Positions 29,166 through 59,360 of a stretch of 64,000 bases of DNA are shown in pieces. The position numbers were made by a program, and so were the translations under genes. The stretch is from Escherichia coli (lineage in GTDB: Bacteria; Pseudomonadota; Gammaproteobacteria; Enterobacterales; Enterobacteriaceae). The DNA lies in NCBI RefSeq assembly GCF_011045215.1, contig NZ_CP049201.1; one strand, written 5' to 3'. The notes under the pieces are model-generated. The model did no database searches, was not told the DNA's origin, and saw nothing but the letters and a program-made list of their open reading frames with translations. Each line of letters opens with the position of its first letter. Within the stretch, counting starts at the first letter, position 1.

Positions 29166-29204
29166 ATTACTACTGTTGTGGATATCCAGATTGTTAAAGA
29201 GCTA

Positions 29205-29430: not shown

Positions 29431-29440
29431 ATTTATAGGT

Positions 29441-29464: not shown

Positions 29465-29484
29465 CGATGGATGGGATATTGAGG

Positions 29485-30177: not shown

Positions 30178-30197
30178 GCGTTTATTACATTTCTTTA

Positions 30198-30260: not shown

Positions 30261-30274
30261 TATTTGGAGGGCAT

Positions 30275-30535: not shown

Positions 30536-31079
30536 GCATCACTGGAAAGTAGAAAAACAGCCTGAGTGGTACGTGAAAGCTGTCAGAAAAACTATCGCAG
30601 CGTTGCCGGGGGGGTACGCTGAAGCTGCTGACTGGCTGGATGTAACAGAGAACGCATTATTTAACCGCCTTCGTGCCGATGGCGATCAGATTTTCCCGCT
30701 GGGATGGGCAATGATTTTGCAACGTGCTGGTGGAACTCACTTCATTGCTGACGCTGTGGCGCAGTCTGCAAATGGCGTCTTTGTGTCTCTTCCTGACGTC
30801 GAGGATGTGGACAACGCCGATATTAACCAGCGCCTGCTGGAAGTCATTGAACAGATCGGCAGTTATTCAAAACAGATTCGTTCAGCAATTGAAGACGGTG
30901 TAGTGGAACCGCATGAGAAGACAGCAATTAACGACGAGCTGTACCTCTCAATTTCGAAGCTGCAGGAGCATGCAGCACTGGTCTACAAAATTTTTTGCAT
31001 TTCAGAAAGTAATGACGCCCGCGAGTGTGCAGCTCCGGGCGCCGTGGCGTGTCGTGACTGTGGAGAAACTAACGCATGA
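30528..31079 (+). CDS. phage CII-like regulatory protein (CP76-type)
   Basis: 183 aa; position after cro; family assignment from memory. Confidence 0.45.
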
Positions 31080-31434
31080 ACAGTTTAACAACACACTACC
31101 GTCGCTCGCAACTGATTGCGCTTCCTGTACCGGGTGGAAAAGCGAAGGTGGAGTATTGCTATGCAGTAAATGTACCAGGTGACAGGGAAATTGTAACCCA
31201 CAGCTTTGCAGAGTGGGCTGTGGGTGATTTCAACCGGCAGAAGGAGACAGTCCTTTGCGACAAGTTAACCGCTGGTTCAAAGATCACTACGGAGTGCCCG
31301 TCAGAGTCATTCGTTGGGAGCCGGAAACACAACGTGTTATCTACCTCCGCGAAGGCTATGAGCATGAGTGCTTCAGCCCGCTCGAACAGTTTCGTCGTAA
31401 ATTCAGGGAAATAGAGGTCGGTCATGAGCACTAA
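31076..31434 (+). pseudogene. phage gene with apparent frameshift
   Basis: protein-like translation switches between two reading frames near 31230-31260; 3' part ends overlapping the next start. Confidence 0.35.
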
Positions 31435-31787
31435 ATTAACCGGCTATGTATGGGATGGTTGCGCTGCATCAGGCATGAAATTATCCAGCGTGGCAATTAT
31501 GGCCCGCCTGGCTGATTTCAGTAATGACGAAGGTGTGTGCTGGCCATCAATTGAAACCATTGCCCGCCAGATTGGCGCGGGGATGAGTACCGTCAGAACG
31601 GCTATCGCACGGCTGGAAGCAGAAGGCTGGTTAACGCGTAAGGCGCGTCGCCAGGGTACCGTCGTGCCGCAACCGTGTGGATGGCGGCATTCCGTGAAAG
31701 CCACTCCCAGCCAGAACGAAACAATTTTCTGGCGCGTCGTGAGCGGTGCTTACGGAAAAGCAGCAAGCGCGCTGCATCGGGTGAAGA
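31424..31787 (+). pseudogene. replication-associated HTH protein, probable remnant
   Basis: N-terminal ~90 aa resemble phage replication-initiator HTH domains; rest of the ORF to 32089 is low-complexity Gly/Arg-rich and overlaps the next gene in another frame. Confidence 0.3.
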
Positions 31788-32147
31788 GTGGTATCTGTCA
31801 GGGAATTACGTGGGGGCTTAATGACGACGTTAACTCAATGCCAGCAGCAGGTGCTGGATATGCTGATTTCTTACCAGAAAGAACGTGGCTTCCCGCCAAC
31901 CAATCAGGAGGTGGCTACCATGCTGGGATACCGTTCAGTGAATGCAGCGGTGGAGCATCTTCGCGCACTGGAGAAAAAAGGCGTCATCACGATAAAGCGT
32001 GGCGTGGCCCGGGGCATCACGCTTCATACCGCGGTGAAGGACGACGACAGCGAGGTGGCCGGGATTATCCGCGCACTGCTTGCTGGTGAGGAAAACGCCA
32101 GGCTGCGTGCAGCCCACTGGTTACATGAGAGGGGGCTGAAAGTATGA
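31788..32147 (+). CDS. winged-helix DNA-binding protein (LexA N-terminal-like)
   Basis: GTG 31788 or ATG 31821; stop coupled to rusA start. Confidence 0.45.
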   Translation: MVSVRELRGGLMTTLTQCQQQVLDMLISYQKERGFPPTNQEVATMLGYRSVNAAVEHLRALEKKGVITIKRGVARGITLHTAVKDDDSEVAGIIRALLAGEENARLRAAHWLHERGLKV

Positions 32148-32521
32148 AGCTGATTCTGCCTTTTCCACCCAGCGTGAACACCTACTGGCGACACCCCAAC
32201 AAAGGGGCATTTGCTGGTAAGAGCCTGATAAGCGCGGCGGGGCGAAAATTCCAGAGTGCGGCGTGCACAGCAATAGTTGAGCAGTTACGTCGTCTGCCGA
32301 AACCAACGTCGGCACCTGCTTCAGTGGAGATCGTGTTGTTTCCTCCGGATAACCGGATCCGCGATCTGGACAACTATAACAAGGCGCTGTTTGACGCCCT
32401 GACCCACGCGGGTGTGTGGGAAGACGACAGCCAGGTGAAAAGAATGCTGGTGGAGTGGGGACCGGTTATCCCGGAAACGGATGTTGCGGGTTGTTGTTCT
32501 GCGGGTTCTGTTCTTCGTTGA
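32144..32521 (+). CDS. rusA: RusA-family Holliday-junction resolvase
   Basis: 125 aa; conserved RDLDN...ALFDALT...DD motifs; C-terminal tail atypical. Confidence 0.65.
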   Translation: MKLILPFPPSVNTYWRHPNKGAFAGKSLISAAGRKFQSAACTAIVEQLRRLPKPTSAPASVEIVLFPPDNRIRDLDNYNKALFDALTHAGVWEDDSQVKRMLVEWGPVIPETDVAGCCSAGSVLR

Positions 32522-32723
32522 CATGAGGTTGCCCCGTATTCAGTTTCGCTGATTTGTATTGTCTGAAGTTGTTTTTACGTTAAGTTGATGCAGATCAATT
32601 AATACGATACCTGCGTCATAATTGATTATTTGACGTGGTTTGATGGCGTAGATGCACGTTGTGACATGTAGATGATAATTATTATCATTTTGCGGGTCCT
32701 TTCCGGCGATCCGACATGTTACG

Positions 32724-32735
32724 GGGCGGCGACCT
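32724..32735. other. lambda-type cohesive end site cosN, with cosB-like sequence to 32912
   Basis: GGGCGGCGACCT followed by CGCGGGTTTTCGCTATTTATGAAAATTTTCCGG, matching the remembered lambda left end, directly upstream of Nu1. Confidence 0.8.
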
Positions 32736-32912
32736 CGCGGGTTTTCGCTATTTATGAAAATTTTCCGGTTTAAGGCGTTTCCGTTCTTCTTCGTCGTAAC
32801 TTAATGTTTTTATTTAAAATACCCCCTGAAAAGAAAGGAAACGACAGGTGCTGAAAGCGAGCTTTTTGGCCTCTGTCGTTTCCTTTCTCTGTTTTTGGCC
32901 GTGGAATGAACA

Positions 32913-33458
32913 ATGGAAGTCAACAAAAAGCAGCTGGCTGACATTTTCGGTGCGAGTATCCGTACCATTCAGAACTGGCAGGAACAGGGAATGCCCGTTC
33001 TGCGAGGCGGTGGCAAGGGTAATGAGGTGCTTTATGACTCTGCCGCCGTCATAAAATGGTATGCCGAAAGGGATGCTGAAATTGAGAACGAAAAGCTGCG
33101 CCGGGAGGTTGAAGAACTGCGGCAGGCCAGCGAGACAGATCTCCAGCCAGGGACTATTGAGTACGAACGCCATCGACTTACGCGTGCGCAGGCCGACGCA
33201 CAGGAGCTGAAAAATGCCAGAGACTCCGCTGAAGTGGTGGAAACCGCATTCTGTACTTTCGTGCTGTCGCGGATCGCAGGTGAAATTGCCAGTATTCTCG
33301 ACGGGATCCCCCTGTCGGTGCAGCGGCGTTTTCCGGAACTGGAAAACCGACATGTTGATTTCCTGAAACGGGATATCATCAAAGCCATGAACAAAGCAGC
33401 CGCGCTGGATGAACTGATACCGGGGTTGCTGAGTGAATATATCGAACAGTCAGGTTAA
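32913..33458 (+). CDS. nohD: terminase small subunit Nu1 homologue
   Basis: 181 aa, near-identical to remembered lambda Nu1 (MEVNKKQLADIFGASIRTIQNWQEQGMPV...). Confidence 0.9.
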   Translation: MEVNKKQLADIFGASIRTIQNWQEQGMPVLRGGGKGNEVLYDSAAVIKWYAERDAEIENEKLRREVEELRQASETDLQPGTIEYERHRLTRAQADAQELKNARDSAEVVETAFCTFVLSRIAGEIASILDGIPLSVQRRFPELENRHVDFLKRDIIKAMNKAAALDELIPGLLSEYIEQSG

Positions 33459-34324
33459 CAGGCTGCGGCATTTTGTCCGCGCCGGGCTTCGCTCACTGTT
33501 CAGGCCGGAGCCACAGACCGCCGTTGAATGGGCGGATGCCAATTACTATCTCCCAAAAGAATCCGCATACCAGGAAGGGCGCTGGGAAACACTGCCCTTT
33601 CAGAGGGCCATCATGAATGCGATGGGCAGTGACTACATCCGCGAGGTGAATGTGGTGAAGTCTGCCCGTGTTGGTTATTCCAAAATGCTGCTGGGTGTTT
33701 ATGCCTACTTCATAGAGCATAAGCAGCGCAATACCCTTATCTGGTTGCCGACGGATGGTGATGCCGAGAACTTTATGAAAACCCACGTTGAGCCGACTAT
33801 TCGTGATATTCCGTCGCTGCTGGCGCTGGCCCCGTGGTATGGCAAAAAGCACCGGGATAACACGCTCACCATGAAGCGTTTCACCAATGGGCGTGGCTTC
33901 TGGTGCCTGGGCGGTAAAGCGGCAAAAAACTACCGTGAAAAGTCAGTGGATGTGGCGGGTTATGATGAACTTGCTGCCTTTGATGAGGATATTGAACAGG
34001 AAGGCTCTCCGACGTTCCTGGGCGATAAGCGTATTGAAGGCTCGGTCTGGCCAAAGTCCATCCGTGGCTCCACGCCCAAAGTGAGAGGCACCTGCCAGAT
34101 TGAGCGTGCAGCCAGTGAATCCCCGCATTTTATGCGTTTTCATGTTGCCTGCCCGCATTGCGGGGAGGAGCAGTATCTTAAATTTGGCGACAAAGAGACG
34201 CCGTTTGGCCTCAAATGGACGCCGGATGACCCCTCCAGCGTGTTTTATCTCTGCGAGCATAATGCCTGCGTCATCCGCCAGCAGGAGCTGGACTTTACTG
34301 ATGCCCGTTATATCTGCGAAAAGA
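33433..34324 (+). pseudogene. terminase large subunit (lambda A) N-terminal ~297 codons, truncated
   Basis: matches lambda A up to ...YICEKTGIW, then diverges into junk; junction near 34324. Confidence 0.8.
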
Positions 34325-34364
34325 CCGGGATCTGGAGGGGAATACCAACATCGCCGGTGTCACG

Positions 34365-34823
34365 GTGGTGTTCCGGGCAGGTGAACAGGAGCAGACACCG
34401 CCGGAGGGATTTGAATCCTCCGGATCCGAGACGGTGCTGGGTACGGAAGTGAAATACGACACGCCGATCACCCGGACCATCACGTCTGCAAACATCGACC
34501 GTCTGCGCTTTACCTTCGGTGTGCAGGCACTGGTGGAAACCACCTCAAAGGGGGACCGGAATCCATCGGAAGTCCGCCTGCTGGTTCAGATACAACGTAA
34601 CGGTGGCTGGGTGACGGAAAAAGACATCACCATTAAGGGCAAAACCACCTCGCAGTATCTGACCTCGGTGGTGGTGGGTAACCTGCCGCCGCGCCCGTTT
34701 AATATCCGGATGCGCAGGATGACGCCGGACAGCACCACAGACCAGCTGCAGAACAAAACGCTCTGGTCGTCATACACCGAAATCATCGATGTGAAACAGT
34801 GCTACCTTCTGCCCGTAAGGTGA
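34365..34823 (+). pseudogene. internal fragment of tail tip protein J
   Basis: translation ...GTEVKYDTPITRTITSANIDRLRFTFGVQALVETTSKGDRNPSEV... matches the middle of lambda J. Confidence 0.75.
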
Positions 34824-36004
34824 ATGGTAAGGCGCTTTCAGCGGATATAACACTGACGCCGAAAGATATTGGTACGCTTAACTCAACAACAATGTCATTC
34901 AGCGGTGGTGCTGGTTGGTTCAAATTAGCAACGGTAACCATGCCACAGGCGAGTTCTGTTGTTTCAATTACGTTGATTGGTGGAGCTGGATTTAACGTGG
35001 GGTCACCTCAACAGGCAGGTATATCTGAACTTGTTTTGCGTGCAGGTAATGGTAATCCGAAGGGGATTACTGGTGCTTTATGGCAGCGCACATCGACAGG
35101 GTTTACAAATTTTGCCTGGGTCAATACATCTGGTGATACTTACGATATTTACGTTGCAATCGGAAATTATGCGACTGGTGTAAATATTCAATGGGATTAT
35201 ACCAGTAATGCCAGCGTGACGATTCATACGTCACCAGCATATTCTGCTAATAAGCCGGAAGGGTTAACGGACGGTACAGTTTATTCACTCTATACGCCAT
35301 CAGAACAGTTTTATCCGCCTGGCGCACCAATCCCGTGGCCATCAGATACCGTTCCGTCTGGCTATGCCCTGATGCAGGGGCAGACTTTTGACAAATCTGC
35401 CTACCCGAAACTTGCAGTCGCTTATCCGTCAGGCGTGATCCCTGATATGCGTGGCTGGACGATTAAGGGCAAGCCCGCCAGTGGTCGTGCCGTATTGTCT
35501 CAGGAACAGGACGGCATTAAATCGCATACCCACAGCGCCAGCGCATCCAGTACGGATTTGGGTACGAAAACCACATCGTCGTTTGATTACGGAACCAAAT
35601 CCACGAATAACACCGGGGCGCATACCCATAGTATTAGCGGGACTGCAAATAGTGCCGGTGCGCACCAACACAAGAGTTCCGGTGCATTTGGTGGCACGAA
35701 CACGAGCATTTTTCCTAATGGTTATACTGCGATTTCAAATCCAAGCGCGGGGATTATGAGCACAACAAGCGGTACTGGCCAGACTCGTAATGCAGGGAAG
35801 ACATCATCAGATGGTGCTCATACCCACTCACTGTCCGGCACTGCTGCAAGCGCAGGTGCACACGCACATACTGTCGGTATTGGTGCTCATACGCACTCCG
35901 TTGCGATTGGTTCACATGGACACACCATCACCGTTAACGCTGCTGGTAACGCGGAAAACACCGTCAAAAACATCGCATTTAACTATATTGTGAGGCTTGC
36001 ATAA
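34799..36004 (+). CDS. side tail fibre protein, C-terminal portion (Stf-like)
   Basis: 401 aa; Gly/Ser/Thr/His-rich repeats (GAHTHS, GAHQHK, GAHAHT) typical of tail-fibre C-termini; followed by tfa. Confidence 0.6.
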
Positions 36005-36585
36005 TGGCATTCAGAATGAGTGAACAACCACGGACCATAAAAATTTATAATCTGCTGGCCGGAACTAATGAATTTATTGGTGAAGGTGACGCATATATTC
36101 CACCTCATACAGGTCTGCCAGCAAACAGTACCGATATTGCACCGCCAGATATTCCGGCAGGCTTCGTGGCTGTTTTCAACAGTGATGAGGCATCGTGGCA
36201 TCTTGTTGAAGACCATCGGGGTAAAACGGTTTATGACGTGGCTTCCGGCGACGCGTTATTTATTTCTGAACTCGGCTTATTACCGGAAAATGTCACCTGG
36301 TTATCCCCGGAAGGGGAGTTTCAGAAGTGGAACGGCACAGCCTGGGTGAAAGATGCAGAAGCAGAAAAACTGTTCCGGATCCGGGAGGCGGAAGAAACAA
36401 AAAACAACCTGATGCAGGTAGCCAGTGAGCATATTGCGCCACTTCAGGATGCTGTAGATCTGGAAATCGCAACGGAGGAAGAAAACTCGTTGCTGGAAGC
36501 CTGGAAGAAGTATCGGGTGTTGCTGAACCGTGTTGATACATCAACTGCACCTGATATTGAGTGGCCTGTAATACCAGAAGTTTAA
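36004..36585 (+). CDS. tail fibre assembly protein (Tfa)
   Basis: 193 aa; stop/start overlap with stf. Confidence 0.75.
36424..36548. repeat. direct repeat copy 1 (3' end of tfa)
   Basis: about 90 percent identical to 40254-40380. Confidence 0.7.
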
Positions 36586-36590
36586 AATAA

Positions 36591-36616
36591 AAGCCCGCTT
36601 AAAATATCGCGGGCTT
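36591..36616. terminator. bidirectional hairpin terminator between tfa and the catalase operon
   Basis: AAGCCCGC-TTAAAATAT-CGCGGGCTT. Confidence 0.55.
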
Positions 36617-36704
36617 CGAAATATAAATGTATTTTCAGAGGCTAGAGCTTAGGATATCTCAGCGGCAATTAACTTATGAGGGATAGCTAAATACCAGAAG
36701 ATAA

Positions 36705-37595
36705 TTAGTTTTTACTATTTATCTTTGTTTGTGGTTCTCCTTCAGCAAGCTCAGCGCCAGTGACAGGATTGATGTCTTCATGGGATTTCAACCTTGTTGC
36801 CATAGCTTTTATCATAGCTTCTTGCTTGGTCGAAAGATTTATCGAGGCCTTCCCATCCCCACCGTCAACCGCTGGAACTGGATCGGAAATATAGTCAAAG
36901 TTTTCATCACTGTTCCAACTACCTCTGACGTCTTCACCTTCTGACATGTTGTAATATACGTTTTTGTATTTCTCAATTGGTGGTAATTTTCCTGGTGGAA
37001 AGGTGTTGCGAATTGAATGTAATGCTTTTTCAAATGAAAGCATGTGTGCTGCTTCCCTGGTCATTAAAAATGCCAGAGTGTCTTTTACTCCAGGATCATC
37101 AGTAACATTAATGAGACGTTCGTAAATGATCTTTGCCCGAGCTTCAGCTGCAATATTTGAACGAAGATCGGCCGTGACTTCGCCAATAGTATCAACATAA
37201 GCTGCAGTCCAGGGTACTCCAGCTGAATTAGTTAATGCTGGGCCTCCTCCGTAGAGGAGAGAAGTTATATGGCTGTCATTGCCATTTTGAGTTAAGGAAC
37301 GGTAAAGCTCAGCTTCATTCTCAGTTCCTTCAGCAAGTGCTCCTTTTGCACCTTTGTTGAGCATACCAACAAGAGAACCAATAATTTCGAGATGACTTAG
37401 TTCTTCTGTTGCTATGTCCATCAGCATATCCCTTCGGCCTGCATCTTCATCACTTAAGCCTTGAGTGAAGTATCGGCATGCTGCTGCAAGCTCACCCTGT
37501 GGCCCGCCGAATTGTTCTAAAAGTAGATTAGCCAAGCCTGGGTTTGGCTCACTTACACGTACTGTATATTGAAGTTTTTTCACGTGTCTAAACAT
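36705..37595 (-). CDS. manganese (non-haem) catalase, KatN-like
   Basis: 296 aa ferritin-like di-metal protein; last gene of the yciG/yciF/yciE-like operon, as in the Salmonella yciGFE-katN arrangement. Confidence 0.7.
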   Translation of the reverse strand: MFRHVKKLQYTVRVSEPNPGLANLLLEQFGGPQGELAAACRYFTQGLSDEDAGRRDMLMDIATEELSHLEIIGSLVGMLNKGAKGALAEGTENEAELYRSLTQNGNDSHITSLLYGGGPALTNSAGVPWTAAYVDTIGEVTADLRSNIAAEARAKIIYERLINVTDDPGVKDTLAFLMTREAAHMLSFEKALHSIRNTFPPGKLPPIEKYKNVYYNMSEGEDVRGSWNSDENFDYISDPVPAVDGGDGKASINLSTKQEAMIKAMATRLKSHEDINPVTGAELAEGEPQTKINSKN

Positions 37596-37613
37596 AATGC
37601 CTCCTCAAAAGAA

Positions 37614-38120
37614 TTATTTTTTGGCTTCAACTCCATCAATTTCAGATCTGACCATGAATTGCTCAGTGGTGTCAGGAATATGGTTAAGAAGCCATTCAGC
37701 CATTTGTTTTTCTTCATTAAGAATTGCTTCAATAATGGGTACTGAAGCTGTATCACCCGCATTTTTGGCTGCTGCGAGAAGAGATGTGTAGCACGCAATT
37801 TCAAATTGTTCGAAAACATAGCCACTGATCGAACCTTTGACAATTTCATCAGATGGAAAAATTCCACCAATGGATTGCCCAAACGCGGCCATTTTACTCA
37901 TAGAGTCTTTAATGACAGAGCGCGAAATATTATTACGATCAAGTATGCTTTCAAGCTGTGAAAGCTGGTTCTTTGTTTCGCTAATGTGCTGCTCAATTCT
38001 GGAACGTAACTCTGGATAGTTTTCTATCCGGCTGGCCATAGACTCAAGCATTTTTTCAGCTTGTTTCTCCATCGCATGTGCATCACGAAGCCAGTCATGG
38101 TAATGTTCAATTCTATTCAT
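37614..38120 (-). CDS. DUF892 ferritin-like stress protein, YciE-like
   Basis: 168 aa; recognised as a YciE paralogue. Confidence 0.7.
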   Translation of the reverse strand: MNRIEHYHDWLRDAHAMEKQAEKMLESMASRIENYPELRSRIEQHISETKNQLSQLESILDRNNISRSVIKDSMSKMAAFGQSIGGIFPSDEIVKGSISGYVFEQFEIACYTSLLAAAKNAGDTASVPIIEAILNEEKQMAEWLLNHIPDTTEQFMVRSEIDGVEAKK

Positions 38121-38156
38121 AATCTGTTTATCCTAAAAGAAATTGAAGTCTATAGT

Positions 38157-38663
38157 TCAGGAGTTATCCTGAGCTTTTTTATTAACGTTATTAAATGCCA
38201 GGTCTGTTAATTTGACATCAGTAGCTTTTTCCTCTTCCAGTGTTTCTTTCAGGAGTTTAGCCGCTTTTTTATATCCTAATTGCTCAGCGAGTGTTACCAA
38301 AGTGCCATAACTGGCAATTTCATAGTGCTCTACTTTTTGTGCTGCAGCAATCAATGCAGCATCACGTACTTCATTTTTATCAGTGCTTTCAATTACCTCA
38401 TTCGCCTCTTCGATAAGTCCTTCCATTGCGGCACACTTAATTCTTTTCAATTTAAGACCATCTTCAGAATCAACAATCTGATCGATGCGTTCAATTTGAC
38501 CATGTGTCTCATCAAGATGTGACTGAAAAGCAGCGGTTAATTTATCACTATATGCAGAGCGACTAAGTTTAGACAGTGCCTTTGTTAGTTGTTTCTCAGC
38601 GCTGTATGTATCCGATAATAAGTGGATGAAGATATCTTCAACAGATTTAATTTGCATAATCAC
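38157..38663 (-). CDS. DUF892 ferritin-like stress protein, YciF-like
   Basis: 168 aa; recognised as a YciF paralogue. Confidence 0.7.
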   Translation of the reverse strand: MIMQIKSVEDIFIHLLSDTYSAEKQLTKALSKLSRSAYSDKLTAAFQSHLDETHGQIERIDQIVDSEDGLKLKRIKCAAMEGLIEEANEVIESTDKNEVRDAALIAAAQKVEHYEIASYGTLVTLAEQLGYKKAAKLLKETLEEEKATDVKLTDLAFNNVNKKAQDNS

Positions 38664-38735
38664 TCCAGAGTTTTCACTGCGAGCCCGTAGGCTCGCAGTT
38701 AGCTTCAGTTATTCACGAATGTAGGGGATGATAAA

Positions 38736-38918
38736 TTAAGAGTCAGATTTACGGCCGCCACCATGGCTATTCTGACCACCTTTTTTCCCTGCTTCTGATG
38801 CTCTTTGTGGATCGTTTTTAAAATTACCGCCACTATGTTGGCCGCCTTTACGACCAGCGTCAGAAGCTTTTTGTCGATCTTCAGCGAAATTACCTGCACC
38901 GCCACGATGTTCGGTCAT
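38736..38918 (-). CDS. KGG-repeat general stress protein, YciG-like
   Basis: 60 aa with repeated KGG / RKGGQ motifs. Confidence 0.65.
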   Translation of the reverse strand: MTEHRGGAGNFAEDRQKASDAGRKGGQHSGGNFKNDPQRASEAGKKGGQNSHGGGRKSDS

Positions 38919-39422
38919 ATCATTTCTCCTCTGATTTTCAAATTGTAAATAACATGTGCCTTGTCAGCACCCAATTAACTCTAGTAACAAATAAGAAAGT
39001 GTCAAATAACAGATTGGTATGCGCATTTTGATGTGAGAAATAATAATTGTAAAAATGTGCGCTCAGTGAGTATAATCTATTGATATCTTAGTGATTAACG
39101 GAAAATTTAGGTTGTAACTCAAAAGATTAATAAACCTAAATTTACATTTCTATATTATTTGGTGTGCCTGTTGTTGTTTTTCTCAATAAGAATACTCTGT
39201 AAAATAATTCAATCGTAAGATGGTTGTTATTCATATTTTTTTGAGATAGTTCCTAATAGGGTCCATCCCTTGAATAAATAATTGTTTTAAAATTTCGTCT
39301 AAAGAACTAATTACAAGAAAATTTATATAGTCCAAGGAATCATGATTGTACTTAACCATAAGATTTGAGCGTAAAAATTAATGCGCAGCACGTCGTATGC
39401 AAGAACGTGCTGCGGTTGGATG

Positions 39423-40091
39423 CTATTTTTTCCCTGAAGCGGAAAACATTACTACAGTACCTTGAACCTTGGTTTTAACATTCTCGAAATGCTCTGAGAG
39501 TATATGTGTTAAGCCTTCTTCGGAATCTCTTGTGTTTGAAAAGATGCCTTTCTGATTGTAAATGCGCATCAGTTTTTGACCGAAGCGATTGTGCACAATT
39601 CCATCGCCAAGAATTGTGGCTCCGTATAGAGTTCCATCGCCAGTTAAGGCCTGCGCCGCATTGCGTATTACACAGCTTTTTGTAGATATATTTCCAGGCA
39701 GGCAGTGAAGAAGGTAAAACATGGAAATGGAATCAAATTGACCATGTAACGCCGCGGGATAAGGTTCAAAAACATCATGGCTAATTTTATGTTTAATTTT
39801 TGATTCCCCAGCCCTTGTAGATGCCGCGTTCAGGCTAGCTTCGTTCAAATCCATTAAAGATATCAGACTACTCTCAGGTACGTGAGTAAGGTAAAACCCA
39901 GTTCCAACACCAATATCCAGATGGTTGTTACCTAAATGTTCCAGAAAGTGTGGAAGAAGGTGTTCCTTTGTAGGACATCCCCATGCAAGCCGATTTGATA
40001 CTCCCAAAACCCACCAGTCATAAAGCTTTAGGGTAAGTGGTGTGTAAATTTTAGCCCCATCATCTGTGTTTTTTTTCATTAATTTCACCAT
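39423..40091 (-). CDS. class I SAM-dependent methyltransferase
   Basis: 222 aa; motif I LDIGVGTG; hairpin terminator just downstream. Confidence 0.65.
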   Translation of the reverse strand: MVKLMKKNTDDGAKIYTPLTLKLYDWWVLGVSNRLAWGCPTKEHLLPHFLEHLGNNHLDIGVGTGFYLTHVPESSLISLMDLNEASLNAASTRAGESKIKHKISHDVFEPYPAALHGQFDSISMFYLLHCLPGNISTKSCVIRNAAQALTGDGTLYGATILGDGIVHNRFGQKLMRIYNQKGIFSNTRDSEEGLTHILSEHFENVKTKVQGTVVMFSASGKK

Positions 40092-40147
40092 GTTATAGTT
40101 TTATTTGTGAATTAAATCAATTATGGCAATGAATTACAAGGGGTTAA

Positions 40148-40453
40148 ATGCTGCCGCAGCATGGCGATATTGAAATAGCCTGGTATGCTTCAATACAGCA
40201 GGAGCCGAATGGCTGGAAGACCGTCACCACACAGTTCTACATCCAGGAATTCAGTGAGTATATTGCGCCACTGCAGGATGCTGTAGATCTGGAAATCGCA
40301 ACGGAGGAAGAAAGATCGTTGCTGGAGGCATGGAATAAATATCGGGTATTGTTGAATCGTGTTGATACATCAGTAGCTCTGGGTATGAAGCTGTTTGTAA
40401 CTCATGTTACAGTAACAGCCATTACTATCTCGAAGGTGCAAAATGTATATTGA
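40148..40453 (+). pseudogene. tail fibre assembly (tfa) 3' remnant
   Basis: only the C-terminal Tfa segment ([34 protein letters not shown]) is recognisable. Confidence 0.6.
40254..40380. repeat. direct repeat copy 2 (tfa 3' end)
   Basis: pairs with 36424-36548. Confidence 0.7.
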
Positions 40454-40636
40454 TTTGATATTTTATAAATTTACTTCGAATCTGGCACGTCAACTTTTGA
40501 TTAAAGTAATATCAGTTTTCGGCGAAAAAAGGACCGTGTACATGAGACGATTTCATACAAGAATAACAAAAATATGAATATGCTCCCAATGCAATATATG
40601 TTTTGCATTGGGAGCAAATAGCGGAATATTTTGAAA

Positions 40637-42121
40637 TTATTGTATTTCTGCTTCAGAATTTCCTGGGCAGTATATATTTTCTATTTTTTGTGGAGTGATC
40701 AGGTGATGTACAACTGCTTTATCTACACATAAATTAACTCCGGTGAGAGCTAATGTATGCCCATCACCATTTATTGTTAGTAACGGGCTGGAAAATTTCT
40801 CTGCCATCTTACGGGCATTAATCCAGGGCGTTGTTGGATCGTATTTGTGTGCTACAAACAGTAAACCAGAGGGCAGAACAGTATTTTTCAGGCGAGTTTT
40901 GTTCAGGTCGCTATGTATTGGCCATAATTCACAAAAATCAGGTGAATCGGAACGTCCATTGTCAAAGTTAATAGCCGGGAAGGCATTCGCAAGAGCCTCT
41001 TTTCGGAATTTTCGCTCTTCTGGTGTTAATTGCTCATCCCCCTGATCTACACAAAGGATTACCCCCGAAGCATCACTTGACTCTTCTGAGGCTATCGGAG
41101 CACTGAGCGCAGTTTCAATTTCATTACTGACAATCCCCTGAGAGAACTGGCGTATGGCAGTTGCAAGGGTTGGCCATGATGAACGCCATAGCAGAAGGTC
41201 TGTTGTTAATGATATGAGTTCATCTGAAGATATATTTTCTCCCTTACTGTCTAATAAAGGTTTGTGATGTAATTTTGATAATAGCTCATGGAACTGAGTT
41301 ATTGCCTTATCTCTGTCTGAAGAAAGCGGGCAACTTTTTGTACGCGCACACCAGGATGCAAAGCGATCAAACGTTTCCTGATAACTCTGTGCCTGTTTGA
41401 GTTGCCATGTGAAGTTGTTCTCCAGGTCATCGATATCGACGACTCCATCAAGAACGATAGATCTTACGTTGTAGGGAAAACGTTCTGCATATAAGGCTGC
41501 AATTTGAGTTCCATACGAATACGCCACGGCTGTCAGTTGTTTATCCCCCAAGGCTTGCCTAATACGATCAATATCGTATACAGCCTCGTTAGAGCCGATA
41601 TGGCGAATGACTTCGGCTCCGGTATTATGGATACAGGCATTAATTTTATTTAATACTTGTTGCTTTTCGGTTATGTTTTCCTGAGTCTCTGTATCTGATT
41701 GTCGGCAGTTTATTGTCGGAGTGGACTGTCCGACGCCTCGAGGATCAAATCCAATAATATCCCATGACTCACGAAGATTTGTGACTGGCCAGTCAAAGTT
41801 AATATAAGGATTTATGCCTGGCAACCCGGGACCACCACTTATTATCAGGATACTTCCTTTATGCTTGCTTTTTGCCGGCAATTTTGTCAACGCTAGTTTG
41901 ACTTGTGATTTTTTTTCATAAGAAGCATCTCCGCCTGTGTCTGTATATTTTAATGGAACAGACAAATAACCACATAGTAAGTCAGGAGACGGTTTTTCCT
42001 CACCAAACCAGTGGTTGAATTGACTGGCCATACAGGATTGCCACTGTATCTGCTGGGCAGATACGGTTACTGGTAGAAGTAACGTTAAAACAACTTTGAA
42101 ATGAGTAATTATTTTTCGCAT
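40637..42121 (-). CDS. secreted alpha/beta-hydrolase (peptidase S33-like)
   Basis: 494 aa; N-terminal signal peptide; GGPG and nucleophile-elbow-like AYSYG motifs. Confidence 0.6.
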   Translation of the reverse strand: MRKIITHFKVVLTLLLPVTVSAQQIQWQSCMASQFNHWFGEEKPSPDLLCGYLSVPLKYTDTGGDASYEKKSQVKLALTKLPAKSKHKGSILIISGGPGLPGINPYINFDWPVTNLRESWDIIGFDPRGVGQSTPTINCRQSDTETQENITEKQQVLNKINACIHNTGAEVIRHIGSNEAVYDIDRIRQALGDKQLTAVAYSYGTQIAALYAERFPYNVRSIVLDGVVDIDDLENNFTWQLKQAQSYQETFDRFASWCARTKSCPLSSDRDKAITQFHELLSKLHHKPLLDSKGENISSDELISLTTDLLLWRSSWPTLATAIRQFSQGIVSNEIETALSAPIASEESSDASGVILCVDQGDEQLTPEERKFRKEALANAFPAINFDNGRSDSPDFCELWPIHSDLNKTRLKNTVLPSGLLFVAHKYDPTTPWINARKMAEKFSSPLLTINGDGHTLALTGVNLCVDKAVVHHLITPQKIENIYCPGNSEAEIQ

Positions 42122-50955: not shown

Positions 50956-52398
50956 TTAAGCGGGTAATGTGATAACAAATCTTGTTCCCCGCGCATCTGA
51001 CGTTACTGCAACCGTGCCTTTATGTGCGACAACAATCGATTTCACTATCGCCAGCCCAATGCCGCTACCTTCGCCTTTTCGTTGGCGGGAGGGGTCAACG
51101 CGGTAGAAACGGTCAAACAATCGCGGTAAGTGCTCGGGCGCAATGGGCGTACCGGGGTTTTCGACGATAACTTGCACCAGATGATCGACCGTCTGGCAGC
51201 GCACTACAATAGCCTCTCCGGGTGGCGTATAACGCAGGGCGTTCGAAAGCAGGTTGCTTAACGCCCGACGCAGCATCAGCGGATCGCCCGCAACCTGGCA
51301 CTCGTCGCCAACAAACTGCAGCTCCACGCCGCGATCTTCCGCTAAAGCCTCGAAAAAATCGAACACTTTGCCGACTTCATCCGCCAGGTTGAGCATTTTC
51401 TTTTCGGGGATTAACTGGTTGTTATCGGCCTGGGCGAGAAACAGCATATCGCTGACCATTTTCGCCATTCGCGTCAGCTCTTCGAGATTAGAGTAGAGCA
51501 CATCTTCCAGCTCCTTCTGGCTGCGCGACTGGCTGAGGGCGATTTCCGTTTGCGTTATGAGATTAGTAATTGGTGTGCGAATTTCGTGGGCGATATCCGC
51601 TGAGAAATTGGACTGGCGGGTAAAGACATCCTCAATACGCTCGATCATATGGTTGAACGACAGTACCAGCTGTTCCAGCTCAATCGGCACGGTCTGCGGG
51701 TCAAGGCGGACGTCGAGATCTTTCGAGGTGATATTCTGGATTTGACGGCTGACGCTGCGGATCGGCGCGTGACCTTTATGAACCGCCAATAGCACGATAA
51801 AGACGATCAGGATGCTGATGACCGATGCGGTCATAATAAGTTTATTCATCAAATCATTTATGTAATGAAGATGAAAATCGATCGAAAGCGCGATGTAGAG
51901 CGTATAAATCGGTTTGCCGTCAACCAGTGAGCCAACTGGCAAACTGATCATCCGCCAGTTGCTGTGTTCCATATGCCCGTGACCGTGGCCTGGCATCATC
52001 ATCGTCGGGCCGGAGAGGAGAAACACCTCGCCGCCCCGCGCGTCTTTATCGGGTATGGCATCGCGCGCAAACTCGCGGATATCAGGCGCACCGGGGGAGT
52101 GATACACCGTTTTACCGTGGCTATCTGCCAGGGAAATCAACACATTGGAATAACCACTGACGATATCTTCCAGCGTCATTAAGCGTCGGGCTTGCGTTTC
52201 GTCAGGGTGATTTAGTACGCGTTCAAGGGTGGCACTAATCTCTTTTAAATCATTAATATCCTGCTCGGCAAAATGCACTTTTACTGAGTGGATCATGATC
52301 CATGCAAAGGCGAAAAACGCCGCGATGGTGGCCAGGCTGATAAAAAAGGTCAGGCGGGTTGCCAGCGAAAACGGGCGCTGAAATGGCTTACTGACCAT
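50956..52398 (-). CDS. cusS: copper/silver sensor histidine kinase
   Basis: start at MVSKPFQRP..., 480 aa; HisKA and HATPase motifs. Confidence 0.9.
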
Positions 52399-53071
52399 CC
52401 GGCACCTCAAGCATGTAACCCACGCCGCGCACGGTTTGAATCAGCTTCGGCTCAAAGTCGTTGTCGATTTTGCCGCGTAGCCGCTTCACCGCCACATCAA
52501 TGGCGTTAGTGTCGCTGTCAAAATTCATGTCCCATACCTGCGAGGCGATAAGCGAGCGGGGCAGCACTTCGCCCTGATGGCGGAGAAAAAACTCCAGCAG
52601 AGTAAACTCTTTACTGGTCAGAGTGATGCGCGTGCCGCTGCGGGTGACTTTGCGGCTGACGAGATCGACCATCAAATCGGCAACCTGAAACTGACTTTCG
52701 ATAATCACCGCCGCCCCGCGCCGCAGGAGAGTGCGCACCCGCGCCAGCAGTTCAGCAAACGCGAACGGCTTCACCAGATAGTCATCGGCCCCCAACTCCA
52801 GCCCCTTGACGCGATGTTCAATGGTGCCAAGCGCGGTAAGCAACAGAATCGGCATCCCTTTATTGGCGGAGCGCAACATGCGCACGATATCCCAGCCGTT
52901 CACGTCCGGCAGCATAATATCGAGGATTATCAGGTCATAATCTCCGGTCATCGCCAGATGGTAGCCATTCAGCCCGTTGTCGGCCAAATCGACCACAAAA
53001 CCGGCTTCGGTTAACCCTTTGGTCAAGTATTCTCCGGTTTTCTTTTCATCTTCGACAATCAACAGTTTCAT
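52388..53071 (-). CDS. cusR: copper/silver response regulator (OmpR family)
   Basis: 227 aa; overlaps cusS start. Confidence 0.9.
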
Positions 53072-53136
53072 ATTTCCTCCGCATGTTGCCCGGGCAATTC
53101 TAGAGTAGCGGGATCAGATGGCAATCGCTTATTGGC

Positions 53137-53158
53137 AAAATGACAATTTTGTCATTTT
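53137..53158. promoter_or_regulatory. CusR box in the cusRS / cusCFBA divergent promoter region
   Basis: perfect palindrome AAAATGACAATTTTGTCATTTT. Confidence 0.75.
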
Positions 53159-53227
53159 CCTGTCACCGGAAAATCAGAGCCTGGCGAGTAAAGTTGGCGG
53201 TATAAAATCACCAGAAATTATGAGCCT

Positions 53228-54610
53228 ATGTCTCCTTGTAAACTTCTGCCATTTTGTGTGGCCCTTGCGCTAACCGGTTGTTCACTGGCACCGGATTATC
53301 AGCGCCCGGCAATGCCCGTACCGCAGCAGTTCTCACTCAGCCAGAACGGCCTGGTTAACGCAGCAGATAACTATCAGAACGCGGGCTGGCGCACCTTTTT
53401 TGTTGATAATCAGGTGAAGACGCTGATTAGCGAGGCGCTGGAGAATAACCGGGATTTGCGCATGGCGACGCTGAAAGTGCAGGAGGCACGGGCGCAATAT
53501 CGTCTGACTGATGCCGACCGCTACCCACAGCTCAATGGTGAGGGCAGCGGCAGCTGGAGCGGCAATCTTAAAGGCGATTCAGCCACGACGCGGGAGTTTT
53601 CTACTGGCCTTAACGCCAGCTTTGACCTCGATTTTTTCGGGCGCTTAAAGAACATGAGCGAAGCCGAGCGACAAAATTATTTAGCCACTGAGGAAGCTCA
53701 GCGCGCGGTGCATATTCTGCTGGTTTCTAATGTCGCGCAAAGCTATTTCAATCAGCAGCTGGCGTATGCGCAATTGCAAATAGCCGAAGAAACGCTGCGT
53801 AATTATCAGCAGTCATATGCGTTTGTCGAAAAACAACTGTTGACAGGTAGCAGTAATGTTCTGGCGCTGGAACAGGCTCGCGGGGTGATTGAAAGTACCC
53901 GCAGCGACATCGCTAAACGTCAGGGGGAACTGGCGCAGGCGAATAATGCATTGCAACTGTTACTGGGAAGCTACGGCAAGCTGCCGCAAGCGCAGACAGT
54001 AAACAGCGACAGCCTGCAAAGCGTTAAATTACCGGCGGGCTTGTCGTCGCAAATCTTATTGCAGCGCCCGGATATTATGGAAGCTGAACACGCGTTAATG
54101 GCGGCTAATGCCAATATTGGTGCTGCACGTGCAGCATTTTTCCCGTCTATCAGCCTGACCAGCGGAATATCAACCGCCAGCAGCGATCTGTCGTCATTAT
54201 TTAACGCCAGCAGCGGGATGTGGAATTTTATTCCTAAAATTGAGATCCCCATTTTTAATGCCGGACGCAACCAGGCCAATCTGGATATCGCCGAAATTCG
54301 CCAGCAGCAGTCGGTGGTGAATTATGAACAGAAAATCCAGAACGCCTTTAAAGAAGTGGCAGATGCGCTGGCATTACGTCAAAGCCTGAACGATCAAATT
54401 AGCGCCCAGCAGCGTTATCTGGCGTCGCTGCAAATTACTTTGCAACGGGCGCGGGCATTATATCAGCACGGCGCGGTAAGTTATCTGGAAGTGCTGGATG
54501 CCGAGCGTTCTTTATTTGCAACCCGACAAACCTTACTTGACCTGAATTATGCCCGTCAGGTCAACGAAATTTCTTTATATACCGCACTTGGTGGCGGTTG
54601 GCAGCAATAA
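53228..54610 (+). CDS. cusC: copper/silver efflux outer-membrane factor
   Basis: 460 aa; lipoprotein signal peptide with LTGCS lipobox. Confidence 0.9.
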   Translation: MSPCKLLPFCVALALTGCSLAPDYQRPAMPVPQQFSLSQNGLVNAADNYQNAGWRTFFVDNQVKTLISEALENNRDLRMATLKVQEARAQYRLTDADRYPQLNGEGSGSWSGNLKGDSATTREFSTGLNASFDLDFFGRLKNMSEAERQNYLATEEAQRAVHILLVSNVAQSYFNQQLAYAQLQIAEETLRNYQQSYAFVEKQLLTGSSNVLALEQARGVIESTRSDIAKRQGELAQANNALQLLLGSYGKLPQAQTVNSDSLQSVKLPAGLSSQILLQRPDIMEAEHALMAANANIGAARAAFFPSISLTSGISTASSDLSSLFNASSGMWNFIPKIEIPIFNAGRNQANLDIAEIRQQQSVVNYEQKIQNAFKEVADALALRQSLNDQISAQQRYLASLQITLQRARALYQHGAVSYLEVLDAERSLFATRQTLLDLNYARQVNEISLYTALGGGWQQ

Positions 54611-54633
54611 TTTTTAACTCCAGGAGAGAATAA

Positions 54634-54966
54634 ATGAAAAAAGCACTGCAAGTCGCAATGTTCAGTCTGTTTACCGTTATTGGCTTTAATGCCCAGGCTA
54701 ACGAACATCATCATGAAACCATGAGCGAAGCACAACCACAGGTCATTAGTGCTACCGGCGTGGTAAAAGGTGTTGATCTGGAAAGCAAAAAAATCACCAT
54801 CCATCACGATCCGATTGCTGCCGTGAACTGGCCGGAGATGACCATGCGCTTTACCATCACTCCGCAGACGAAAATGAGTGAAATTAAAACTGGCGACAAA
54901 GTGGCGTTTAATTTTGTCCAGCAGGGCAACCTTTCTTTATTACAGGATATTAAAGTCAGCCAGTAA
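54634..54966 (+). CDS. cusF: periplasmic copper chaperone
   Basis: 110 aa with signal peptide. Confidence 0.9.
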   Translation: MKKALQVAMFSLFTVIGFNAQANEHHHETMSEAQPQVISATGVVKGVDLESKKITIHHDPIAAVNWPEMTMRFTITPQTKMSEIKTGDKVAFNFVQQGNLSLLQDIKVSQ

Positions 54967-54981: not shown

Positions 54982-56205
54982 ATGAAAAAAATCGCGCTTA
55001 TTATCGGCAGCATGATCGCGGGCGGTATTATTTCTGCGGCAGGTTTTACCTGGTTTGCAAAGGCTGAACCACCCGCAGAAAAAACGTCGACCGCAGAACG
55101 TAAAATCTTATTCTGGTACGACCCGATGTATCCCAATACGCGGTTCGATAAACCAGGTAAATCGCCGTTTATGGATATGGATCTGGTGCCGAAATATGCC
55201 GATGAAGAGAGTTCTGCGTCTGGTGTGCGCATTGACCCGACTCAGACGCAGAATCTGGGGGTGAAAACGGCTACCGTCACGCGCGGGCCGCTGACTTTTG
55301 CCCAGAGTTTCCCGGCGAATGTCAGTTACAACGAGTATCAGTATGCCATTGTGCAGGCTCGCGCCGCCGGGTTTATCGACAAGGTGTATCCGCTTACCGT
55401 GGGCGATAAAGTGCAAAAGGGCACACCGCTTCTCGACCTGACCATTCCCGACTGGGTGGAAGCGCAGAGTGAGTATTTACTGCTGCGCGAAACCGGCGGT
55501 ACGGCGACCCAGACTGAAGGCATTCTTGAGCGGCTGCGACTGGCGGGAATGCCGGAGGCGGATATTCGCCGCCTGATCGCCACGCAAAAAATCCAGACTC
55601 GCTTTACGCTCAAAGCACCCATTGATGGCGTGATCACCGCGTTTGATCTGCGCGCGGGAATGAATATCGCCAAAGATAACGTGGTAGCGAAAATTCAGGG
55701 TATGGACCCGGTGTGGGTCACTGCTGCGATCCCGGAGTCCATCGCCTGGCTGGTGAAAGATGCCTCGCAGTTTACGCTCACCGTTCCGGCGCGACCTGAT
55801 AAAACACTCACCATCCGCAAATGGACGCTACTACCTGGCGTGGATGCCGCGACCCGCACGCTGCAGCTGCGTCTGGAAGTCGACAACGCCGACGAGGCGC
55901 TAAAACCGGGAATGAACGCCTGGTTGCAACTCAATACCGCCAGCGAACCGATGCTGCTCATTCCGTCACAAGCGCTGATTGATACCGGCAACGAACAGCG
56001 GGTGATTACCGTTGATGCCGACGGGCGCTTTGTACCGAAACGCGTTGCCGTTTTCCAGGCATCGCAAGGTGTCACCGCGTTACGCTCTGGTCTGGCGGAA
56101 GGTGAAAAGGTGGTTTCCAGCGGCCTGTTCCTGATTGATTCCGAAGCCAATATTTCTGGCGCACTGGAGCGGATGCGCTCTGAAACTGCTACCCATGCGC
56201 ATTGA
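54982..56205 (+). CDS. cusB: copper/silver efflux membrane fusion protein
   Basis: 407 aa. Confidence 0.9.
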   Translation: MKKIALIIGSMIAGGIISAAGFTWFAKAEPPAEKTSTAERKILFWYDPMYPNTRFDKPGKSPFMDMDLVPKYADEESSASGVRIDPTQTQNLGVKTATVTRGPLTFAQSFPANVSYNEYQYAIVQARAAGFIDKVYPLTVGDKVQKGTPLLDLTIPDWVEAQSEYLLLRETGGTATQTEGILERLRLAGMPEADIRRLIATQKIQTRFTLKAPIDGVITAFDLRAGMNIAKDNVVAKIQGMDPVWVTAAIPESIAWLVKDASQFTLTVPARPDKTLTIRKWTLLPGVDAATRTLQLRLEVDNADEALKPGMNAWLQLNTASEPMLLIPSQALIDTGNEQRVITVDADGRFVPKRVAVFQASQGVTALRSGLAEGEKVVSSGLFLIDSEANISGALERMRSETATHAH

Positions 56206-56216: not shown

Positions 56217-59200
56217 ATGATTGAATGGATTATTCGTCGCTCGGTGGCGAACCGTTTTCTGGTACTGATGGGTGCGTTGTTTCTGAGCATCTGGGGTACC
56301 TGGACCATCATTAACACGCCAGTGGATGCGCTGCCGGATCTCTCCGATGTGCAGGTGATTATTAAAACCAGCTATCCCGGGCAGGCACCGCAAATCGTTG
56401 AAAATCAGGTGACTTATCCGCTAACTACCACCATGTTGTCGGTACCTGGCGCGAAGACTGTGCGCGGTTTCTCGCAGTTTGGCGACTCTTATGTGTATGT
56501 CATTTTCGAAGATGGCACCGATCCGTACTGGGCGCGCTCGCGGGTGCTGGAGTACCTCAACCAGGTACAGGGTAAGCTGCCTGCGGGAGTCAGCGCCGAG
56601 CTGGGGCCAGATGCCACGGGTGTTGGCTGGATCTATGAATATGCACTGGTGGATCGCAGCGGTAAGCACGATCTGGCCGATTTACGCTCATTGCAGGACT
56701 GGTTTCTCAAATATGAGCTAAAAACCATCCCTGACGTTGCGGAAGTGGCGTCGGTGGGCGGCGTGGTGAAAGAGTATCAGGTGGTTATCGATCCCCAGCG
56801 CCTGGCGCAATATGGTATCAGTCTCGCCGAAGTAAAAAGCGCGCTAGATGCTTCAAACCAGGAAGCGGGCGGTTCGTCGATCGAACTGGCGGAAGCGGAA
56901 TATATGGTGCGCGCCAGCGGCTATCTGCAAACGCTCGACGACTTTAATCACATCGTTTTAAAAGCCAGTGAAAATGGCGTGCCTGTTTATCTGCGTGATG
57001 TTGCGAAGGTCCAGGTTGGCCCGGAGATGCGCCGGGGCATTGCCGAACTGAACGGCGAAGGCGAAGTTGCGGGCGGGGTGGTGATCCTGCGCTCCGGCAA
57101 AAACGCCCGAGAAGTGATCGCCGCCGTGAAGGACAAACTGGAAACGCTGAAAAGTAGTCTGCCGGAAGGCGTGGAGATAGTTACAACATACGATCGCAGC
57201 CAGCTCATTGACCGGGCCATCGACAACCTCAGCGGCAAGTTGCTGGAAGAGTTTATTGTGGTGGCGGTAGTCTGTGCGCTGTTTCTCTGGCATGTGCGCT
57301 CGGCGCTGGTGGCGATTATTTCGTTGCCGCTGGGGTTGTGTATTGCTTTTATTGTCATGCACTTCCAGGGGCTGAATGCCAATATTATGTCGTTGGGTGG
57401 CATTGCGATTGCCGTCGGGGCGATGGTCGATGCTGCTATCGTCATGATCGAGAATGCACATAAACGGCTGGAAGAGTGGCAGCACCAGCATCCTGACGCC
57501 ACGCTGGATAATAAAACGCGCTGGCAGGTGATCGCCGATGCGTCTGTTGAAGTGGGGCCGGCGCTGTTTATCAGTCTGCTGATTATCACGTTGTCGTTTA
57601 TCCCGATCTTCACCCTGGAAGGGCAGGAAGGGCGTCTGTTTGGCCCGCTGGCGTTCACTAAAACCTATGCGATGGCGGGTGCGGCGCTGCTGGCGATCGT
57701 AGTGATCCCTATCCTGATGGGTTACTGGATCCGTGGCAAAATTCCGCCAGAAAGCAGTAACCCGCTCAATCGCTTTTTGATTCGTGTTTATCATCCGCTG
57801 TTGCTGAAAGTACTGCACTGGCCGAAAACCACGCTGCTGGTGGCGGCGCTTTCGGTGCTGACGGTTCTCTGGCCGCTCAATAAAGTTGGCGGGGAATTTT
57901 TACCACAGATCAATGAAGGCGACTTGTTGTATATGCCATCGACGTTGCCGGGGATTTCCGCAGCGGAGGCGGCGAGTATGCTGCAAAAAACCGACAAGCT
58001 GATTATGAGCGTACCTGAAGTGGCGCGGGTATTTGGCAAAACCGGAAAAGCGGAAACCGCCACCGACTCTGCTCCGCTGGAGATGGTGGAAACGACCATC
58101 CAGCTTAAGCCACAGGATCAGTGGCGGCCAGGCATGACAATGGACAAAATCATTGAGGAACTGGATAACACCGTGCGTCTGCCGGGGCTGGCGAATCTGT
58201 GGGTGCCGCCAATTCGTAACCGTATCGATATGCTCTCAACCGGCATTAAAAGCCCTATCGGCATAAAAGTTTCCGGCACTGTGCTGGCGGATATCGACGC
58301 GATGGCGGAGCAAATTGAAGAGGTGGCACGAACGGTGCCAGGCGTGGCTTCTGCGCTTGCCGAGCGTCTGGAAGGTGGGCGCTATATCAACGTTGAGATT
58401 AACCGTGAAAAAGCCGCGCGTTACGGTATGACGGTGGCGGATGTGCAGTTGTTTGTGACTTCTGCGGTGGGCGGGGCGATGGTTGGCGAAACGGTGGAAG
58501 GGATTGCCCGTTATCCCATTAATCTGCGTTATCCGCAAAGCTGGCGCGATAGTCCGCAGGCACTGCGCCAGTTGCCGATCCTGACGCCGATGAAGCAGCA
58601 AATCACCCTGGCAGACGTAGCCGACGTTAAAGTCTCTACCGGACCGTCGATGCTGAAAACCGAGAATGCGCGCCCGACGAGCTGGATTTATATCGATGCC
58701 CGCGATCGTGACATGGTGTCGGTGGTTCACGATTTGCAAAAAGCGATAGCTGAAAAAGTGCAGTTAAAACCGGGCACCAGCGTGGCATTCTCCGGGCAGT
58801 TCGAGCTACTGGAGCGCGCCAACCATAAGCTGAAACTCATGGTGCCGATGACACTGATGATCATCTTCGTGCTGTTGTATCTGGCATTCCGTCGGGTGGG
58901 CGAAGCGTTGCTGATTATCAGCAGCGTACCGTTTGCGCTGGTGGGCGGCATCTGGTTGCTGTGGTGGATGGGCTTTCATCTTTCTGTGGCGACGGGCACC
59001 GGTTTTATTGCCCTTGCCGGGGTCGCCGCCGAATTTGGCGTGGTGATGCTGATGTATTTACGTCACGCCATAGAGGCCGAGCCGTCGTTGAATAATCCGC
59101 AAACATTCAGCGAGCAGAAGCTGGATGAGGCGTTGTATCACGGCGCGGTACTGCGCGTGCGCCCGAAAGCGATGACGGTGGCGGTGATTATCGCTGGTCT

Positions 59201-59360
59201 GCTGCCGATTCTGTGGGGAACAGGAGCAGGGTCAGAGGTGATGAGCCGGATTGCCGCGCCGATGATTGGCGGCATGATCACCGCGCCTTTGCTGTCGCTG
59301 TTTATTATCCCGGCGGCGTATAAGCTGATGTGGCTGCACCGACATCGGGTACGGAAATAA
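56217..59360 (+). CDS. cusA: copper/silver RND efflux pump
   Basis: 1047 aa, 12-TM RND transporter. Confidence 0.95.

Follow-up and report, generated by a model that had tools for sequence, protein, structure and literature searches.

The CusR operator between the divergent cusRS and cusCFBA genes of an Escherichia coli chromosome, with comparative support for an extended operator

We analysed a 64,000-nucleotide stretch of Escherichia coli DNA (hereafter the window), in which the wider gene order reads argU-(prophage)-ompT-envY-ybcH-nfrA-nfrB-cusSR/cusCFBA-pheP. The copper/silver efflux genes are arranged around a 156-bp divergent intergenic promoter/operator region at 53072..53227, which is assigned to neither strand and is bounded by the ATG start codons at 53071 (minus strand) and 53228. 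On the minus strand lie cusR (52388..53071), which encodes an OmpR/PhoB-family response regulator of 227 aa and matched the NF007346 equivalog with 507.9 bits (cut-off 420) over positions 1-227 of 227, and cusS (50956..52398), which encodes the Cu(I)/Ag(I) sensor histidine kinase of 480 aa (NF007345, 981.9 bits, profile positions 1-480 of 482). The cusS boundary at 52398 is the RefSeq start mapped from strain GF3-3, and the reading frame in the list of open reading frames runs on to 52410. On the plus strand, cusC (53228..54610; outer-membrane channel, 460 aa; NF007347, 907.2 bits, full length) is followed by cusF (54634..54966; periplasmic Cu/Ag chaperone, 110 aa; NF007348, 206 bits), cusB (54982..56205; membrane fusion protein, 407 aa; NF007303, 861.8 bits) and cusA (56217..59360; RND permease, 1047 aa; TIGR00914, 1666 bits, full length). 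All six cus genes are full length, and their NCBIfam profiles are covered end to end. The identity of cusR and cusC was based on NCBIfam equivalog and subfamily scores far over the cut-off and on the RefSeq annotation of near-identical E. coli chromosomes; the 2.2-kb cusR-cusC segment shows 99.9% identity to E. coli GF3-3 and 99.7% to O157:H7 chromosomes, with the same RefSeq genes. The CusR protein encoded in the window is 100% identical to K-12 CusR, and the CusC protein is 100% identical to that of GF3-3.

Elsewhere in the window, argU is a tRNA-Arg(TCT) gene at 22164-22240 with an integrase ORF directly after it, and a DLP12-like lambdoid prophage remnant occupies ~22256-42000, ending before ompT. 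The region 22000-46000 is a mosaic, and no complete RefSeq E. coli genome covers at least 80% of it in one place; the best single-place coverage among these genomes is 78%, at 98.5% identity. Rfam matches at gathering level were obtained for the ES036 (CssrF) sRNA, the STnc480 sRNA and IS009, at 601-643, 669-735 and 36347-36545, the IS009 match falling within the prophage region.

Within the intergenic region lies the CusR box AAAATGACAATTTTGTCATTTT (53137-53158, likewise without an assigned strand), which consists of the arms AAAATGACAA (53137-53146) and TTGTCATTTT (53149-53158) on either side of a central TT; in its context it reads TTGGC AAAATGACAA TT TTGTCATTTT CCTGTCACC. According to PMC11195947, in a statement quoting Yamamoto and Ishihama 2005, the palindrome AAAATGACAAnnTTGTCATTTT located between the divergent cusRS and cusC(F)BA operons is bound by the CusR protein of E. 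coli, and according to the same paper pcoE carries TGACAAnnTTGTCAT. Compared with the published site in the form of this quoted consensus, the box agrees at 20/20 specified positions. An earlier note on this DNA had described the box as a perfect palindrome lying centrally between cusR and cusC. The position was right, because 53072-53227 is exactly the cusR-cusC spacer and the box is separated from the cusR start codon by 65 nt and from that of cusC by 69 nt. The palindrome was described too loosely: a repeat search found that the two 10-nt inverted arms are 100% complementary, but the TT centre is not self-complementary, so that the box read on the reverse strand has 2 mismatches and the 22 nt as a whole are not a perfect palindrome. 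This wording is nevertheless compatible with the published consensus, because the two central bases of the latter are nn. In addition, the core ATGACA-ATTT-TGTCAT at 53140-53155 fits the AgrR-box consensus ATKACANNNNTGTMAT, and it contains the inverted hexamers ATKACA/TGTMAT separated by a 4-bp gap, as in copper boxes of the CopR/PcoR/AgrR type.

A search allowing up to 3 mismatches revealed a single occurrence of AAAATGACAATTTTGTCATTTT in the 64-kb window, and the 14-bp core TGACAANNTTGTCA, with at most 1 mismatch, was likewise present in one copy only. Under the same tolerance of up to 3 mismatches, there were 0 matches to the box in 100 dinucleotide-preserving shuffles of the window, which argues against a chance A/T-rich palindrome. 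A hairpin, cruciform or terminator without any protein-binding role might be suggested by the single-stranded fold of the region (-7.3 kcal/mol, z = -3.8); however, any palindrome would give such folding, the predicted hairpin has an A/T-rich stem and a 4-nt loop with no T-run after it, and a scan of 52950-53350 for intrinsic terminators returned 0 terminator-like sites. The box is also probably not transcribed, since it is placed between two inferred outward-facing start sites. Given these results, the published binding data and the retention of the box across genera with diverged flanks, an origin by chance or a purely structural role is extremely improbable.

The site in K-12 is said to have been given the earlier name "copper box" by Munson et al. 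in 2000. The cus spacer of K-12 MG1655 (595444-595599) is 156 bp long, like that of the window, and the 22-bp box including its TT centre, its position and the flanking genes are all the same in both. The two spacers differ at 2 bases, both outside the box. Position 53159, a T in K-12 and a C in the window, separates the box from the third half-site considered below; position 53201, a C in K-12 and a T in the window, gives TATAAA instead of CATAAA close to the predicted start of cusC transcription. The spacer allele of the window is a 100% match to O157:H7-type strains. Because the site and its regulator are both identical to those of K-12, the function established in K-12 carries over to the window site with high confidence.

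The binding of CusR to this spacer in K-12 has been documented by several approaches. A DNase I footprint puts CusR at the cus spacer, as cited in the S1 text of PMC9725139, where the K-12 sequence is displayed with the footprinted region and the flanking -35 labels marked. In gSELEX with unphosphorylated CusR, the sole high-level peak was the cus spacer (PMC8249747), and ChIP revealed a single genomic CusR peak, on the same spacer (bioRxiv 10.1101/2020.08.17.251918). In reporter studies, CusR~P activated PcusC as well as PcusR, and the copper induction of cusC depends on CusR (bioRxiv 10.1101/2020.08.17.251918 among the literature). Unphosphorylated CusR has been described as a repressor of cusCFBA at this site in the absence of metal (PMC8249747), and the cus site might work in both directions, that is, in activation and in metal-free repression. 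No start-site or binding-site coordinates for the cus promoters are given in PMC12589874 or PMC11522558. The feature is the CusR operator of the cus locus, already described and K-12-like; its designation in the earlier note as the known CusR binding site was well founded, as the box equals both the published AAAATGACAAnnTTGTCATTTT and the K-12 box.

Further downstream, the cusC-cusF spacer of K-12 contains an insertion of ~125 bp (4970-5131 of the K-12 locus L002, against 54600-54634 of the window), and the corresponding spacer of the window, without the insertion, is 23 bp. The K-12 insertion contains GTAAGCTCCTGGGGATTCAC, which we take to be ERIC/IRU-like. The K-12 CusC protein has 457 aa through a TGG-to-TGA change, which is absent from the window, where CusC has 460 aa.

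The conservation of the box was evaluated at several phylogenetic depths. Among the 5426 complete E. coli genomes, 5333 have a cus spacer of at least 95% identity to that of the window, and a 38-mer spanning the box was found in 5333/5426 as well, the matching records comprising 3379 identical sequences, 1856 with one mismatch and 99 with two. A scan for the exact box in 100,044 species, each represented by one genome, yielded 37 loci, about 15 of which adjoin a CusR homologue of 61-100% identity. The box together with a CusR homologue was found in Escherichia, Citrobacter koseri, Shimwellia, six Providencia species, Psychromonas, a Rhodocyclaceae MAG and Acinetobacter dispersus. From one genus to another, the sequences on either side of the box can no longer be aligned while the box itself is kept, which supports a functional role for it; the central dinucleotide varies among genera (TT, AA, AT, CG, AG, TG and GC). 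As a test independent of the box, plasmids were searched using the CusR protein as the query, and the silR-silC spacer of pECL_A, which was reached via the protein, contains the box with 1 mismatch.

At some loci, the exact box is placed upstream of other genes: a multicopper oxidase fragment in Enterovibrio (L023), an outer-membrane efflux protein gene in a Proteobacteria MAG (L021) and a cusF homologue, itself downstream of cusS, in Shimwellia (L007). These placements indicate that the motif serves different copper genes depending on the genus.

Twenty of the 37 exact-box loci were taken to be unrelated or chance occurrences, as they lack the third half-site and have no adjacent CusR homologue. 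The majority belong to A/T-rich MAGs of Firmicutes or Mollicutes. Three are linked to LacI: in a Comamonadaceae MAG, a Xylophilus sp. and Klebsiella spallanzanii (L004, L008 and L026), LacI-family regulator genes adjoin a site that has identical arms but a CG centre (AAAATGACAACGTTGTCATTTT). The bare 22-mer, out of context, is thus non-diagnostic of CusR, and the palindrome might be read as the operator of a LacI/GalR-family repressor. However, the centre in the window is TT rather than CG, the neighbouring genes are cusR and cusC with no LacI-family gene adjacent, and the window possesses both the third half-site and the -10 element at +39 of the copper loci, neither of which is present at the three LacI-linked loci. 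We therefore give next to no credence to a LacI/GalR operator at this position, and the CusR operator is retained as the explanation.

The third half-site, CTGTCAC, is located on the plus strand at 53160..53166 (TGTCA at 53161-53165) and is read in the window as CCTGTCAC on the cusC side of the box. It is a direct repeat of the cusC-side arm, and its binding by CusR is putative; the TGTCA at 53161-53165 lies 11 bp from that at 53150-53154, as in the direct repeat of copper boxes. To compare the flanks, the loci were aligned by anchoring on the box. At an offset of +11, nGTCA was present in 17/17 copper-context (proteobacterial exact-box) loci and in 0/20 of the others; among the 17 copper loci, the half-site is TGTCA in 13 and nGTCA in 4. 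A second element at a fixed distance is the predicted cusC -10 hexamer TAAAGT (53189..53194, plus strand), for which the distance to the cusC-side arm is exactly 39 bp. When one sequence was counted per lineage, 11/13 lineages had TAnnnT precisely at +39, measured from the promoter-proximal arm, and no other offset between +17 and +55 was shared by more than 2. The arrangement of third half-site and -10 element is also found at the silC and silE promoters.

The cusC -10 element was inferred from this cross-species spacing, because the cusC promoter has no recognisable -35 element and the sigma-70 scan gave a promoter on the cusR side only. The -35 position is occupied by the non-consensus CCGGAA (53166-53171), which fits an activator-dependent cusC promoter, and this placement is consistent with the apparent position of the "-35 PcusC" label in the S1 text of PMC9725139 as rendered in plain text. 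From the conserved spacing, transcription of cusC would start at ~53201, and relative to this predicted start the centre of the box would lie at ~-53.5 and that of the third half-site at ~-38. The TATAAA at 53201-53206, which is created by the base difference from K-12, was considered as the main cusC -10 and rejected, since it is absent in K-12 (CATAAA) and its position is not conserved.

The idea of a third half-site is not new, as it has been proposed for E. coli CusR and is functional for AgrR. The S1 text of PMC9725139 states for E. coli CusR that "an additional half-site may exist downstream", describes the head-to-head layout as atypical for the OmpR family, and indicates that SELEX points to head-to-tail binding by CusR~P. 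For AgrR of Cupriavidus metallidurans, a 6-4-6 inverted repeat (ATKACANNNNTGTMAT) and an in-phase direct repeat have been footprinted, and both contribute to binding and activation. The core of the cus box fits this consensus and the promoter-proximal direct repeat is comparable; however, AgrR is another regulator from another organism and acts unphosphorylated in the strain studied, and the role of the direct repeat for E. coli CusR is putative. Our comparative data strengthen the suggestion made for E. coli, where binding to the third half-site remains putative.

The consensus of the Pho box bound by PhoB is CTGTCATAWAWCTGTCAY. Taken together, the cusC-side arm and the third half-site (TTGTCATTTTCCTGTCAC) make up a tandem, TGTCA-N6-TGTCA, with a period of 11 bp, which resembles the head-to-tail layout of the Pho box in the OmpR/PhoB family. 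Unlike the Pho box, the cus site possesses an extra inverted arm and is located about one helical turn farther from the -10 element, the gap between half-site and -10 being 23 bp at cus and ~10 bp at pstS. The likeness does not indicate an involvement of PhoB at cus.

Closer counterparts exist in the sil/pco plasmids, in which the SilR operator of the silRS/silCFBA spacer and the silE promoter show the TGACAA-nn-TTGTCA repeat followed by a third TGTCA at +11 and by a -10 element at +39, as in cus. SilR is ~87% identical to CusR, and the box of the silC spacer is 1 mismatch from the cus box. The sil sites differ from cus in being plasmid-borne, in having a paralogous regulator and an imperfect outer A/T tract (ATAATG...), and in the length of the spacer, which is 189 bp.

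A similar design is present in the K-12 hprRS-hiuH spacer, and it bears on the question of which regulator uses the cus box. The HprR/CusR box of that spacer (CATTACAAAATTGTAATG) is an inverted repeat with an in-phase third half-site at +11 toward the target gene hiuH and a -10 element at +39, like cus, although its half-sites are TGTAA/TTACA where those of cus are TGTCA/TGACA. HprR and CusR are both reported to recognise it, as a target of lower affinity (PMC8249747). Conversely, in K-12 gSELEX with HprR (YedW), a paralogue of CusR that responds to H2O2 and HOCl, the single high-level peak was the cusRS/cusCFBA spacer (PMC8249747), and HprR has been reported to read the sequence recognised by CusR with a different affinity (PMC8249747; PMC9302797). 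It is therefore fairly probable that CusR shares the cus box with HprR, which may even be its main user, and that oxidative and copper signals are integrated at this operator. Against a predominant role of HprR, the copper induction of cusC is CusR-dependent according to the literature, and hprRS lies outside the 64-kb window. Moreover, the use of the box by HprR extends the explanation by CusR rather than replacing it, and the identification as the CusR operator is not affected.

The cusR side of the spacer is organised differently from the cusC side. A sigma-70 promoter for cusRS was predicted on the minus strand at 53097..53124, with the -35 element TTGCCA (53124-53119), a 16-bp spacer and the -10 element TAGAAT (53102-53097), giving 10/12 matches in the sigma-70 consensus scan; TGGCAA is labelled "PcusR -35" in the S1 text of PMC9725139. 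The TAGAAT is kept in Escherichia, C. koseri, the sil plasmid and Providencia, and the spacing on the cusR side differs from genus to genus. A mirrored third half-site was sought on this side and is absent, the bases at 53130-53134 being TATTG. The autoregulation of PcusR has been estimated to be ~5-fold (PMC9725139). The asymmetry between the cusR and cusC promoters agrees with this value and with the fact that cusCFBA depends strictly on CusR.

We consider it very likely (probability about 0.95) that the site is the chromosomal E. coli CusR operator of the divergent cusRS/cusCFBA control region, an activator site bound by CusR~P. The sequence, position, uniqueness, conservation and promoter geometry of the site were computed here, while binding and copper-dependent activation come from the literature on the identical K-12 site. 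No evidence contradicting the identification was found among the sequence, context and literature comparisons that we made. In the most likely mechanism, phosphorylated CusR, joined by HprR through cross-talk, would activate both divergent promoters. Periplasmic Cu(I)/Ag(I) would render the CusS kinase active, leading to the phosphorylation of CusR, and CusR~P would then occupy the TGACAA-nn-TTGTCA inverted repeat as a head-to-head pair and very probably also the third, in-phase TGTCA located 11 bp nearer to cusC, an occupancy suggested by the comparative data. Protein would thereby be positioned from ~-64 to -36 relative to the cusC start, at a promoter lacking a usable -35 element, which would make the transcription of cusCFBA activator-dependent. 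The same complex would lie ~12 bp upstream of the -35 element of the near-consensus cusRS promoter, where it would exert a modest positive autoregulation.

A more specific proposal, to which we give slightly better than even odds, is that the operator is tripartite and consists of the inverted repeat, the in-phase promoter-proximal half-site and a -10 element fixed at 39 bp. The third half-site would then determine at which of the two divergent promoters transcription strictly requires the activator, and CusR~P could switch between head-to-head and head-to-tail binding or bind as at least three protomers. Geometry of this type is conserved in gamma- as well as beta-proteobacteria, where it is shared by promoters of cus, sil, silE and hiuH.

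The earlier note had also treated the box as an anchor that confirms the intactness of the regulon. The regulon is indeed intact, as judged by the six full-length ORFs, but the box alone is no proof of this; taken together, the box and the six full-length genes are a landmark of an intact, normally wired, K-12-like copper/silver efflux system. A mildly useful addition is the comparative support for an extended operator with a third half-site and a fixed spacing to the -10 element. The extended operator bears on the design of PcusC copper biosensors and decoy sites, which often carry the truncated palindrome only, according to the S1 text of PMC9725139.

We also noted a 20-nt direct repeat with 80% identity and 45-bp spacing in the cusC half of the spacer, comprising TCACCGGAAAATCAGAGCCT at 53163-53182 and TCACCAGAAATTATGAGCCT at 53208-53227. 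The first copy covers the region just past the third half-site, and the second ends at the cusC start codon; this repeat may be due to chance.
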